DNA from: Escherichia phage HMD-6
Sequence record: PQ505080.1
Reading direction: 5' to 3' (one strand)
DNA length: 64,000 bases
Both the position numbers and the translations under genes were made by a program. Of this stretch, positions 36,536 through 39,911 are shown one piece after another (position 1 is the stretch's first letter; every line of letters begins with the position of its first letter). The notes under the pieces were generated by a model. The model had not been told where the DNA came from. It saw only the letters and a list, made by a program, of their open reading frames with translations, and ran no database searches.

Positions 36536-37576
36536 ATGTCAAAACCTAGTTTTCCATTAGAGATTTGGGCAGAGGAGGATCAGGTTCTGCCTAACACCCA
36601 CAGACAGAACAGGCTACGCCCGATTGATGATTTGTGGAGAAAAGGTTGGGATCTTGGTCAAAAGCCATCCTGTGAAGAACTTAACTATATTTTCAATATG
36701 CTCGGGACTTGGGCAAAATACATTGCTGACGAGCAGATCCCCGCTCAAGAAGGCCGTTATCTGGTACGTGATAATAACCTGAGTGATCTTTTGAACATCC
36801 CTGTTGCCCGTAGAAACCTTGGGATTATTACTAAGGAAGAGGCAGACGCCAGGTATGTAAAAGTTACAGGTGATACAATGACAGGCCCATTGGGTTTGCA
36901 ACGTATCAACTTTAAAGCTGCCGAGACAGATAAGGCTTGGATAGAGACAACTATCGGCCCAGATAAGACAACCCTTGACTTTGGGTTAAGTGATAATATT
37001 GGGGCGTTCGATGATGGTGGCACATCTACAGTAGATGCGTTCCGTTGGAGATTCCAGCCAACTCAGCCGAACATTAACCCAGAGTTCACTCTGATGTACC
37101 TGAACGCGATCACGGCTAATCGTGCGTTGTTGAAAGTGGTGGGCAATGTTGAAGTTGTTGATAACATGCGATGTAATAACCTTACCATTAGCAGCGCAGC
37201 AACATTCACCAACTGCAATGTAGCTAGTCAGTTGACGGCTGGGTCAGTATATGTCAATGGCGGTGCAAGTTGTGATAGTATGGTCGTAAGAAGCCAGCAT
37301 TGTGTTGTCGGTAACAGAAATGTGGTGCGCTCTGTGAATGGAGTAACGGCTAACGGCAACGGAGATGTAACGATCACCATCCCGCAGACAGGTGTACAGG
37401 ATATCAGAATCGGAGCAAGACTTGTTGATGGTGTTTCTGAATCTCCAGTTCGCAACGGCTACGTTGTCACAGGTTGGCATTTTGGTGATAAAAAAGAGAT
37501 GCGTGGTTCAACCTACTGGGCAGGGCCTTTACAGAAACTTGTAAACGGTCAATGGATCACTGTTAATTATGCGTAG
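36536..37576 (+). CDS. tail fibre protein, paralog A
   Basis: 346 aa; GDTMTGPLGL motif typical of phage fibres; paralogous to 38592-39635 with the same ending NGQWITVNYA. Confidence 0.55.
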   Translation: MSKPSFPLEIWAEEDQVLPNTHRQNRLRPIDDLWRKGWDLGQKPSCEELNYIFNMLGTWAKYIADEQIPAQEGRYLVRDNNLSDLLNIPVARRNLGIITKEEADARYVKVTGDTMTGPLGLQRINFKAAETDKAWIETTIGPDKTTLDFGLSDNIGAFDDGGTSTVDAFRWRFQPTQPNINPEFTLMYLNAITANRALLKVVGNVEVVDNMRCNNLTISSAATFTNCNVASQLTAGSVYVNGGASCDSMVVRSQHCVVGNRNVVRSVNGVTANGNGDVTITIPQTGVQDIRIGARLVDGVSESPVRNGYVVTGWHFGDKKEMRGSTYWAGPLQKLVNGQWITVNYA

Positions 37577-37590
37577 ATCGGAGGACTAGC

Positions 37591-38175
37591 ATGAAAATAC
37601 TTCAAGAGTTTAAGCTTTACCAACCGGGATCTGGCGAATACTACACCAACAAGGAGGCCAAGGAGCTGACTCCTCAGGAGGTTGAGGATTACACAGCATA
37701 CACTGGATATTTTTTACGTAATGATGATGGCGATTGGTATGTGCAATCACGAACACTGCGACAAGAAAATCCAGGCTGTATCTTCCTACTTGTTGACGAG
37801 AAGGGTATTCTTAAGACATCTACAGAAGAACCTGATGCCTTGTGGCCTGCTCCAGGTCTTCGTGTGGTTATCGCCAAAAAAGAAGAGGTACCAGAAAACA
37901 TTATGCTCCACCACGACGCTTTGCGTTTAGTTGGTGATGAATTTGTCACAGACAATGAATTCTTTGTTCAACAGGCAGAGGGTGTCATAGAGACAGAACT
38001 TGCTTGGGCTACTGCTAGAATTGGTGCCTATCAAGACATGATTGACCTTGAATACGATCTTACTGATGACCAAAAACGCAACATCAGAGATTTGAAAATG
38101 TACAGGGTAAAACTTCTTGAAATAGATACATCTAAAGCCCCTGACATTTTCTTCCCGGAACGACCTACCCTCTAA
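37591..38175 (+). CDS. hypothetical protein, possible fibre assembly factor
   Basis: 194-aa acidic ORF directly after fibre paralog A. Confidence 0.35.
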   Translation: MKILQEFKLYQPGSGEYYTNKEAKELTPQEVEDYTAYTGYFLRNDDGDWYVQSRTLRQENPGCIFLLVDEKGILKTSTEEPDALWPAPGLRVVIAKKEEVPENIMLHHDALRLVGDEFVTDNEFFVQQAEGVIETELAWATARIGAYQDMIDLEYDLTDDQKRNIRDLKMYRVKLLEIDTSKAPDIFFPERPTL

Positions 38176-38186
38176 GAGGAGGTGTT

Positions 38187-38501
38187 GTGGAGTTGGATTT
38201 GGCGGCATTGTACGGTATCTGCATGGGTACCGTTGTCCCGATCTGTGTATGGGCTTTCAACCAGTGGCACACCAAATGGAAAGGCATTTCCAAGAGGCTG
38301 GATGAGCTGGAGAAAGACCTCATTTTAGTGAAAAATAGCATGGTTACAAAAGATAGACTTGATTCCATTATTGAGACCCGGTTAAGTAAGCTAGAGGCCG
38401 ATATTAACGACCTTAAGCAAGATGTCAGGACAGATGTCTCCGGTATCAGAGCCGATGTGCAAAAGATTTTACACATGCTTGTAGAGCATAGTAAAAGGTA
38501 A
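38187..38501 (+). CDS. small membrane protein, N-terminal TM segment plus coiled coil
   Basis: 104 aa; GTG start 5 nt after AGGAGG; hydrophobic residues ~5-27 (LAALYGICMGTVVPICVWAF) then heptad-like helical region. Confidence 0.45.
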   Translation: MELDLAALYGICMGTVVPICVWAFNQWHTKWKGISKRLDELEKDLILVKNSMVTKDRLDSIIETRLSKLEADINDLKQDVRTDVSGIRADVQKILHMLVEHSKR

Positions 38502-38510
38502 ACAAAGGTC

Positions 38511-38540
38511 AGAACGGCAAGGATGCCGTTCTTGCATTTT
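38511..38540 (+). terminator. terminator-like hairpin overlapping the next promoter
   Basis: Perfect 9-bp stem AGAACGGCA/TGCCGTTCT with loop AGGA, T-rich tail. Confidence 0.5.
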
Positions 38541-38560
38541 GTTCTCTAAAGTGTTAAAAT
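38532..38560 (+). promoter_or_regulatory. sigma70-like promoter, TTGCAT-17 bp-TAAAAT with TGT extended -10
   Basis: -35 38532-38537, -10 38555-38560. Confidence 0.45.
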
Positions 38561-38591
38561 AGTCCTTAAGGAATTTTCTCAGGAGAACGTG

Positions 38592-39635
38592 ATGACTAAA
38601 CCAGTTATCCCTCTTGATATTTGGGCCAATCAGGATGTTGTGCTTGAAAATACAGGAGAGTTGAACAAATCTCAACCGAACAAAGAAGAGAGATTGAAAG
38701 GTTGGGATATGACACAAAGGATAGCATGTGAAGTTGTTAACTTTGAACTCCACATGCTCTCTGCGTGGCTAAAGCATTTAACAGAAGATGTTGTCCCAGG
38801 ATGGGATAATAGATTCTTAAGGGTCACTAATAATCTGGCAGACGTTCCAGACAAAGCTGCTGCACGTAAAGTTCTCAATGTATACTCGCCTGAAGAAATG
38901 GATGACCTTTATGTTGACAAGGCTGGAGACACAATGATCCAGACTCAAACTTTAGGTCTTCAAAGAATCGAGTTTGCATCCGCGTCAACAGACAATGCGG
39001 CGATATACACCACCATAACTTCAGACAAGACGATGATGGATTTCTGGATTATGGACAACATCGGTGGTGCTGACGGCACAGACCTTGATGATCCCTCTCA
39101 CCAAATAGACGGTTTCCGTTGGAGATTTCAACCTTCCGGTGGGCAGCCTGTGTTTTCGGCTATGAAGCTCAATGCTATAACTGCCAACCGTGCAAGACTG
39201 GCTATCCAAGGAAATCTTGAATGCAATGATGCAAAAAGCTCCTCTGCAAATGCTAATGCGGTAACGATACCTAGAGCCACTGTTAATGGACAACAATCCT
39301 GCGGCAGCGCTCAAATAGGTGGAAGAGTAGATTGTAACGATAAAACCGCCAGGGGTCAATATGCAACAGTTGGTGGAAGAAACGTGGTCCGCAGGGTAAA
39401 TGGCAGTAGCGCAGACAGTAGTGGTAACCTTACTATTCCTATGCCTAGTAGGGGTGTTGAAGATGTAAGGATAGCAAACCGTTTCAGAACCACCTACAGA
39501 GAATCAAGAGTATACCCTGGGCATGTAATGTGCTCCGGCAATTACGCCTATAAACACCCGTATCAGGGCGACTATTGGACTGGTGCTATTCAAAAATTTG
39601 TAAACGGTCAATGGATCACCATATCTTATGCTTAA
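38592..39635 (+). CDS. tail fibre protein, paralog B
   Basis: ATG 38592 after AGGAGA; GDTMIQTQTLGL variant motif; ends NGQWITISYA; shares 22 identical nt near its 3' end with paralog A. Confidence 0.55.
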   Translation: MTKPVIPLDIWANQDVVLENTGELNKSQPNKEERLKGWDMTQRIACEVVNFELHMLSAWLKHLTEDVVPGWDNRFLRVTNNLADVPDKAAARKVLNVYSPEEMDDLYVDKAGDTMIQTQTLGLQRIEFASASTDNAAIYTTITSDKTMMDFWIMDNIGGADGTDLDDPSHQIDGFRWRFQPSGGQPVFSAMKLNAITANRARLAIQGNLECNDAKSSSANANAVTIPRATVNGQQSCGSAQIGGRVDCNDKTARGQYATVGGRNVVRRVNGSSADSSGNLTIPMPSRGVEDVRIANRFRTTYRESRVYPGHVMCSGNYAYKHPYQGDYWTGAIQKFVNGQWITISYA

Positions 39636-39644
39636 AGAGGGTAA

Positions 39645-39911
39645 ATGAAATTAACTCAGTTTTTATGGGGACTGGTTGCAGCATCTGATGACCCTACAAA
39701 AGTGTCCCAATCTAAGCTATGGTCAAACATAGGCATGGCAGTGATGACTGGGGTTTTTATTCATATGGGGTACAATGATACGCTTCCTGAATGGTATGCG
39801 TGGATATACGCACCTTCAGTAGCCTGCCCCCAGCTTATTAGCAAATTCATCTCGCTCCGGTGGGGTTGCCAGCACCCTGACCACGTTAAAAACGAAGAGC
39901 AAAAAGCTTAA
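39645..39911 (+). CDS. small hydrophobic protein
   Basis: 88 aa with hydrophobic stretches (LWSNIGMAVMTGVFIHMGY); directly after fibre paralog B. Confidence 0.4.
   Translation: MKLTQFLWGLVAASDDPTKVSQSKLWSNIGMAVMTGVFIHMGYNDTLPEWYAWIYAPSVACPQLISKFISLRWGCQHPDHVKNEEQKA

Follow-up and report, generated by a model that had tools for sequence, protein, structure and literature searches.

The short-tail-fibre locus at positions 36,536–39,911 of a 64,000-nt stretch of Escherichia phage HMD-6 (PQ505080.1; the whole stretch is called the window below) carries two paralogous fibre genes, fibA and fibB, one tail fibre assembly chaperone gene (Tfa), and genes for two small proteins of 104 and 88 amino acids (aa). 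The window is an rV5/FV3-like Vequintavirus, and the locus is its short-tail-fibre module. Taken together, it is likely that this two-fibre locus is served by a single shared Tfa, that a 22-nt identity near the 3' ends of fibA and fibB is a by-product, and that fibB sits in the slot of a multi-pass membrane gene; with low confidence, the 104-aa protein (gp31) is read as an assembly accessory. The paralog pair, the chaperone and the late promoter P030 have been published for rV5, and the feature is already known; the new points are modest and comprise the concerted evolution of the fibre tips, the position of fibB in a membrane-gene slot, and the persistence of two core proteins with no assigned function in the fibre cluster. 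Features are as follows.

36536..37576, + strand: fibA, short tail fibre paralog A, rV5 gp33 ortholog, 346 aa (open reading frame [ORF]; phrog_4465, E=4e-171)
37591..38175, + strand: Tfa, tail fibre assembly chaperone, rV5 gp32, 194 aa (Pfam Caudo_TAP PF02413; phrog_136, E=1e-36)
38187..38501, + strand: 104-aa protein, rV5 gp31, phi92 gp149 family (GTG start, 4 nt after AAGAGGAGG Shine-Dalgarno; phrog_5345)
38592..39635, + strand: fibB, short tail fibre paralog B, rV5 gp30 ortholog, 347 aa from ATG (ORF; phrog_4465, E=2.5e-162)
39645..39911, + strand: 88-aa conserved small protein, rV5 gp29, phrog_1322 'membrane protein' (phrog_1322, E=2.7e-32)
37539..37560, + strand: 22-nt identity, copy 1, encoding (L)VNGQWIT of the terminal motif (exact match TTGTAAACGGTCAATGGATCAC)
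39598..39619, + strand: 22-nt identity, copy 2 (exact match TTGTAAACGGTCAATGGATCAC)

All five ORFs of the initial annotation are present where it placed them (346, 194, 104, 347/348, and 88 aa); the two lengths for fibB reflect an alternative in-frame GTG start at 38589, which gives 348 aa. Comparison genomes were GenBank records and two Logan contigs (L026, L028). Positions 36000–42000 are 98.7% identical to Escherichia phage vB_EcoM_SYGMH1 and 98.6% identical to FV3, and are matched by 117 GenBank phage records, essentially all Vequintavirus. One-to-one gene counterparts are FV3 ORF033-029, BASEL RudolfGeigy bas52_0034-0038, and rV5 gp33-gp29 (gp33, fibA; gp32, Tfa; gp31, 104 aa; gp30, fibB; gp29, 88 aa); the BASEL annotation of the fibA counterpart is short tail fiber. 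Gene order is the same throughout rV5, FV3, and BASEL Bas50-Bas58, at about 94–99% DNA identity; rV5 differs in a 30-nt run with KL in fibB, where the window has a 22-nt run with KF in fibB. The rV5 gp30 and gp33 were described as fibre paralogs, 42.3% identical, and were proposed to recognise two lipopolysaccharide (LPS) chemotypes (Kropinski et al. 2013; PMC3606486). Vequintavirinae sensu stricto were stated to have two paralogous short tail fibres with a chaperone (homologs of Mu GpS and GpU), and phi92-like phages a single short tail fibre (Maffei et al. 2021). Sixteen GenBank records (MG0656xx) titled 'Campylobacter phage' share about 94% identity in this region with E. coli rV5-like phages; their host labels look wrong.

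The fibre genes were called paralogs in the initial annotation, and rightly so: the two proteins align end to end at 43% identity (153/356; E=1e-94). Residues 1–108 of fibA and 1–82 of fibB match the short tail fiber (STF) of phiTE (9cuy; E=1.7e-19 and E=2.5e-8, respectively). In phiTE, STF residues 3–92 form the joint on the baseplate wedge; the phi92 homolog gp147, known as fiber III, is fixed to the underside of wedge protein gp145. By these alignments, the N-terminal joint of fibA and fibB is a phiTE-type wedge-docking domain. At the other end, fibA residues 286–343 match Mu gpS (5yvq 440–501; E=5e-6) and also align to Mu S', and residues 286–346 constitute a Mu gpS-type tip. The tip ends family-wide in P-[LI]-Q-x-x-[VI]-N-G-x-W; fibA, Mu gpS, and Mu S' have the ending P-x-Q-x-x-[IV]-N-G-x-W in common, and the terminal motif here is P-L-Q-K-x-V-N-G-Q-W. 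Identity between fibA and fibB is distributed along fibA as follows.

fibA residues 1–66: 41%
fibA residues 67–118: 38%
fibA residues 119–205: 56%
fibA residues 206–262: 33%
fibA residues 263–290: 50%
fibA residues 291–330: 32%
fibA residues 331–346: 69%

Residues 206–262 and 291–330 diverge most and are therefore likely specificity determinants; with docking and terminal parts shared and these segments divergent, the two fibres would provide two binding specificities on the same type of attachment. For the engineering of rV5/phi92-type therapeutic phages, the two segments are natural candidates for specificity swaps, and the concerted evolution of the paralog tips (see below) argues for keeping any engineered tip compatible with the one Tfa. 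Two similarities claimed in the initial annotation stand in part. The GDTM motif is found in both fibA and fibB here, but rV5-type fibB carries GDIM; a common C-terminus holds for the final 16 residues, with 11/16 identical, and identity over the whole tip domain is 44%. In phage V18 (KY683736; L020 1-1040; at about 36612 of the window), fibA has a 1-nt deletion (gene length, 1040 nt), and the record annotates a shortened fibA coding sequence without the wedge-docking N-terminus; either the sequence is in error at this point or fibA may be dispensable.

That the 3' (tip) ends of the paralogs evolve in concert is seen in a deeper uncultured lineage with the two-fibre layout, represented by L026 (Logan SRR25011148; 3852-4892 and 5926-6990) and L028 (Logan SRR22424562). 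In these contigs, A and B tips are 88–89% identical and the rest of the proteins 41–48%; orthologous A tips across lineages are 62% identical. In a tree of residues 263 to the end, A groups with B within L026/L028, whereas a tree of residues 1–205 places an old B clade apart from the A clade. The last residues also co-vary within a genome (..YA/..YA here; ..QTL/..QTL in L026/L028). The L026/L028 paralogs have a common terminal peptide, ...QKLVNGQWITVQTL (...PLQKLVNGQWITVQTL), although hardly any synonymous site agrees between them; selection on the protein, not conservation of a DNA element, therefore maintains the motif. In the L026 tip, 50/56 residues are identical, and codons are identical at 12/45 (27%) versus 61/117 (52%) in the rest of the gene (Fisher P=0.005). 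Two possible explanations for this low codon identity are an old conversion event since overwritten by saturation, and selection that disfavours identical DNA in direct repeats. DNA identity of the 22-nt type is confined to Vequintavirus proper.

A single Tfa probably serves both fibres. The window Tfa belongs to the Caudo_TAP family (PF02413; 45.6 bits, cut-off 22.1), residues 121–192 being the conserved C-terminal helical domain, and is 47% identical to the Tfa of L026. It adjoins fibA on the 3' side and is the sole Tfa gene of the locus; the ORF 3' of fibB is unrelated to Tfa, and no cognate Tfa lies directly downstream of fibB. The locus was thus misread in the initial annotation as two units of a fibre gene and a small ORF, for the following ORFs are mutually unrelated (Caudo_TAP chaperone and phrog_1322, respectively). 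Published work on Mu and Pam3 assigns binding of the distal fibre tip to the variable N-domain of such chaperones, and trimerisation to their conserved C-domain. The fibre tip of Rosemountvirus BP63 is 58% identical to the fibA tip, and the BP63 Tfa is homologous to the window Tfa over its full length (E=2e-12), which fits tip-chaperone pairing. In the mechanism proposed here, the one Tfa/gpU-type chaperone (gp32) would fold the products of both fibA and fibB, and both tips would therefore probably be constrained at the protein level.

The 22-mer is the longest common substring of fibA and fibB, is not extendable, and forms the core of a 63-nt direct repeat (76% identical; copies 2,059 nt apart). 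Other in-register runs of the two genes are shorter (next longest, 12–14 nt), and the 22-mer lies 16 nt from the stop codon. Chance was assessed by shuffling synonymous codons among positions of the same residue, so that both proteins and the codon usage of each gene were kept; an in-register run of at least 22 nt was obtained with P=0.003 (20,000 shuffles), and with P=0.0015 in a repeat of the test. Among mononucleotide shuffles (n=2,000), the longest run was 16 nt. The identity thus exceeds chance by the criterion set in the initial annotation, a compositional null. The same codon is used at 7/10 positions in the last 16 residues versus 44/133 elsewhere (P=0.035). An exact 15-nt direct repeat, AGAAGATGTTGTCCC, occurs at 36493–36507 (3' end of the gp34 homolog) and 38783–38797 (interior of fibB); it is probably due to chance.

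Ten Vequintavirus genomes were compared for run length (runs 11–30 nt; P from 0.6 to below 0.001), with the following outcome.

rV5-type genomes: longest in-register run 30 nt, codon-null P<=0.00025
This window and B9-1: longest in-register run 22 nt, codon-null P about 0.002
YP-6, ECP32, JES2013, and JeffSchatz: longest in-register run 11–15 nt, codon-null not significant

The asparagine codon in the run is AAC or AAT in either paralog, and 4/4 combinations are found among genomes; a shared AAC/AAT polymorphism of this kind may be expected from occasional gene conversion. Most likely, the 22-mer is a by-product of constraint at the protein level together with a short, lineage-specific trace of conversion: codons of preferred usage in the terminal motif, and a short conversion tract between the paralogs, would together give the 22-nt identity. 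The initial annotation had proposed instead a recombination anchor for module exchange, which is not borne out, the DNA being unconserved and the match lying only 16 nt from the stop. That the 22-mer is maintained for swapping fibre modules between genes or phages is improbable, even though the run exceeds the codon null (P=0.0015–0.003 here; 30 nt, P<=0.00025, in rV5-type genomes), the L026/L028 tips are clearly homogenised between paralogs, and the tip domain is common to unrelated phages (e.g., Rosemountvirus and Mu). The run measures only 11–15 nt in 4/10 sister genomes and is synonymously scrambled in L026/L028, and a scan of IMG/VR, which yielded too few genomes, returned the exact 22-mer in a single contig and in one copy only. 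Its position 16 nt from the stop means that a second homology block would be needed for tip exchange, and the next runs are of 12–14 nt; a crossover between the direct copies would delete Tfa (the only one), gp31, and nearly all of fibB. Sister genomes are about 94–99% identical, so that recombination is possible anywhere, and RecA-type exchange is efficient only with homology of 22 nt or more. Coincidence, with invariant residues written in preferred codons and no gene conversion, is likewise a rather unlikely account. It would agree with the invariance of the terminal motif across the protein family, with the same AAT GGT CAA TGG codons in the single-copy gene of Av-05, with the post hoc choice of the run, and with a longest run that is unremarkable in 4/10 genomes, but is opposed by the null that preserves codon usage (P about 0.002; <=0.00025 for the 30-nt run), by the same-codon excess in the last 16 residues (P=0.035), and by the identical synonymous polymorphism in both paralogs.

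Several points weigh against the by-product account and against one Tfa serving two fibres. The case for gene conversion in Vequintavirus consists of one shared polymorphic site and one short run, which recurrent C/T transitions could mimic. Service of fibA and fibB by one Tfa is deduced from gene content. The fibB tip carries the terminal motif and aligns to fibA, and its direct match to Mu gpS falls short of significance. In the tree of residues 1–205, fibB lies outside fibA, Av-05, and R7; on this tree, an origin of fibB by horizontal acquisition, or by older duplication and loss, would not be separable from fast evolution. As to the presence of both paralogs in virions, no entries of 346, 347, 194, or 104 aa were found in the deposited rV5 mass-spectrometry table (Additional file 5, 19 proteins), and rV5 Table S3 marks mass-spectrometry evidence for gp34 and none for gp30 and gp33; the main text of the rV5 paper (PMC3606486) includes gp30, gp32, and gp33 among the proteins detected by mass spectrometry. 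The short-fibre ortholog of CB7 was found in virions by mass spectrometry; fibA and fibB may be trimeric virion proteins that bind the terminal receptor (LPS core).

Single-fibre relatives show what the second fibre gene may have displaced. In four genera (Av-05, the Seunavirus-like Salmonella phage R7, phiTE, and, by gene numbering, CB7) the order is fibre, Tfa, transmembrane (TM) plus coiled-coil protein (104–112 aa), multi-pass membrane protein (152–157 aa), 86–89-aa protein, and next fibre. The genes for the 104-aa and 88-aa proteins are thus present in single-fibre relatives; therefore they pre-date the second fibre and are not parts of a duplicated unit. The multi-pass gene is found in 107 phage records, with no Vequintavirus or phi92-like phage among the matches listed; it is kept in phiTE, Seunaviruses, and Avunaviruses where fibB sits here, and has no similarity to fibB. 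The 157-aa gene of Av-05 was considered as a fibB remnant and rejected, since it lacks such similarity and encodes a multi-pass membrane protein. In the proposed scheme, fibB would occupy the slot of the multi-pass gene, and the genes for the 104-aa and 88-aa proteins would be what is left of an older accessory cassette.

The 104-aa protein has one strongly hydrophobic segment (residues 5–23; Kyte-Doolittle 1.91), preceded by acidic residues and followed by K30, K32, K36, and R37; from the basic residues after the TM segment (positive-inside rule), an N-out/C-in topology with a cytoplasmic helical domain is predicted. The AF2 model (pLDDT 74) consists of helices 2–51 and 55–103 with a break at a conserved V-T-K. 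The single TM segment of the initial annotation, here followed by helix, is thus sustained by both the hydrophobicity profile and the structure prediction, and gp31 is listed as a membrane protein with one TM domain in rV5 Table S3. The initial annotation assigned the protein no definite role, which still holds. In the annotations of FV3, YP-6, B9-1, and V18, gp31 starts at an internal ATG (38223; 92 aa), by which 12 residues and part of the TM helix are lost; the GTG start at 38187 is favoured because of its strong Shine-Dalgarno and the alignment of the N-termini of distant homologs. The family counts at least 174 clusters, with long-contig members on 130–160-kb phage contigs, and has no Pfam domain. 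Homologs lie directly 3' of Tfa in every lineage examined (Vequintavirinae and Stephanstirmvirinae), including phi92-like and phAPEC8-like phages (phi92 gp149).

The 88-aa protein has homologs in 368 phage records, and all 69 aligned cluster representatives (of 72 found) are assigned to phrog_1322. Its hydrophobicity is moderate, no 19-residue window reaching Kyte-Doolittle 1.5, and its AF2 model (four helices; pLDDT 58) was set aside as unreliable. Its homolog in phi92-like and phAPEC8-like phages is encoded upstream of the wedge genes. The label DUF2644 (PF10841) on one homolog was rejected as unsupported (0/16 close homologs; 3/69 distant ones, weakly, best E=2e-4). Scans of the 104-aa and 88-aa proteins against Pfam, NCBIfam, and PADLOC gave sub-threshold coiled-coil noise only, and word-indexed protein searches with one small protein at a time retrieved no more than near relatives.

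Linkage to Tfa in all lineages examined, together with the predicted cytoplasmic domain, favours a membrane-tethered assembly accessory for gp31. With low confidence, we take the 104-aa protein to be tethered to the membrane and absent from the virion, and to assist in the assembly of short fibres or the baseplate. A narrower proposal is offered as doubtful: the gp31/phi92-gp149 family (about 104–113 aa), with its TM anchor and cytoplasmic two-helix domain, would be a co-factor, so far overlooked, that helps from the membrane to assemble short fibres of the Mu-gpS type; gp31 would then work with Tfa at the inner membrane, and the co-variation of tips within a genome would represent co-adaptation to a common folding machinery. 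In CB7 virions, CB7_31 (short fibre) and CB7_36 (next fibre) were detected by mass spectrometry, and CB7 32-35 (Tfa and the three genes after it) were not. Against a non-virion assembly role stand the ease with which small hydrophobic proteins are missed by virion mass spectrometry, the label 'structural protein' given to some 88-aa homologs, the lack of PDB or BFVD matches in a Foldseek search with the 104-aa model, the lack of homology between the 104-aa protein and T4 gp57A (hhalign probability 0.05%; BLASTP E=5.4), and a family search with no family match, the topology being predicted only.

The main rival for the role of the 104-aa protein is lysis timing, with exclusion less likely. That the 104-aa and/or 88-aa proteins are lysis proteins (an rV5-like holin or antiholin), placed like T4 gene t, is unlikely, yet deserves weight because the group has no assigned holin (LL12 announcement; gp129 was no more than a guess by the rV5 authors), both genes are placed in late transcription units, the C-terminus of the small, helical 88-aa protein is charged (homologs have long, highly charged tails), and in BP63 a lysis cassette directly follows fibre and Tfa. 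Neither protein matches a holin family in Pfam, NCBIfam, or PHROGs, and neither resembles the BP63 holin or DUF2570 protein; moreover, the 88-aa protein has only weakly hydrophobic segments, the endolysin is distant, the spanins lie elsewhere (next to the terminase gene), and certreviruses keep both genes despite a better holin candidate beside the lysin. The strict linkage of Tfa and the 104-aa gene across subfamilies points to a role with the fibres rather than in lysis. The 104-aa protein was also considered as an i-spanin and rejected as unlikely, given its predicted C-in topology, no embedded or adjacent lipoprotein ORF, and a spanin pair by the terminase gene. Superinfection exclusion or receptor masking by the small membrane proteins, as by T4 Imm/Sp or T5 Llp, is very improbable. 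Exclusion genes often adjoin genes for receptor-binding proteins, T4 Imm and Sp resemble the small proteins in size and predicted topology, and the PHROGs class of phrog_1322 is 'moron, auxiliary metabolic gene and host takeover'; but the genes lie in late structural operons and not early ones, are core genes in two subfamilies with different receptors (including flagellotropic phiTE), unlike typical morons, and gave a coiled-coil artefact only in the PADLOC scan, while an LPS receptor would be hard to mask for a protein that sits in the inner membrane with its domain in the cytoplasm. The gp31 and gp29 families thus stand as core to two subfamilies inside the fibre cluster, with function unassigned, in a group that also lacks an assigned holin.

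The arrangement resembles several known systems. Like Mu S/S' and U/U' (5yvq, 8ju3), the locus has two alternative tips, of which the fibA tip aligns to gpS 441–501 and to S', and a Caudo_TAP-type chaperone immediately downstream of the fibre. In Mu, S and S' are switched by Gin-mediated DNA inversion, and each tip has its own chaperone; here there are two complete fibre genes in direct orientation, one chaperone, and no invertase site seen at the locus. The phi92 gp147-gp148-gp149 and phiTE gp236-gp240 clusters share the wedge-docking short fibre, Tfa, and TM plus coiled-coil protein, and differ in having a single short fibre. At the level of role, T4 gp12 and gp57A are comparable (baseplate short fibres for irreversible binding to the LPS core, with a small helical chaperone needed), whereas gp57A has no membrane anchor and T4 has a single short-fibre gene; similarity of gp30/gp33 to T4 gp12 by HHpred was reported by the rV5 authors (PMC3606486). 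In BP63 (L025 1852-5638), a fibre with related tip precedes two Tfa genes, directly after which come holin, endolysin, DUF2570 protein, and spanin genes, a layout likened to T4 g37-g38-t, where lysis genes follow fibre genes.

Transcription signals and the next gene downstream are as follows.

38511..38532, + strand: terminator-like G+C-rich hairpin, 9-bp stem, directly 3' of the 104-aa gene (consensus scan)
About 38539..38576, + strand: late promoter P030, predicted for rV5, directly upstream of fibB (TTGTTCTCTAAAGTGTTAAAATAGTCCT(T)AAGGAATTT, matching rV5 Table S4)
39921..41666, + strand: next fibre gene, rV5 gp28, phiTE gp241 type, end of the fibB transcription unit (phrog_4549)
41674..41695, + strand: intrinsic terminator, rV5 t028

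From the predicted P030, fibB would start its own late transcription unit. The hairpin at 38511–38532 has no counterpart in the published terminators of rV5, and nothing was found in an Rfam scan of 34000–42000. Homologs of the next fibre gene in L026/L028 carry Pfam Phage_phiTE_241_N/C. Upstream of fibA lies the gp34 homolog (34451–36523), with a non-contractile-tail-sheath TIM-barrel (PF23845, E=3e-80), NCTSP_N, and Calx-beta domains; R7 has no gp34 homolog at the corresponding position. The BASEL annotation of the homolog is lateral tail fibre with glycosidase and deacetylase domains, and it is probably the deacetylase fibre tied by recent papers to ECA/NGR glycan binding.

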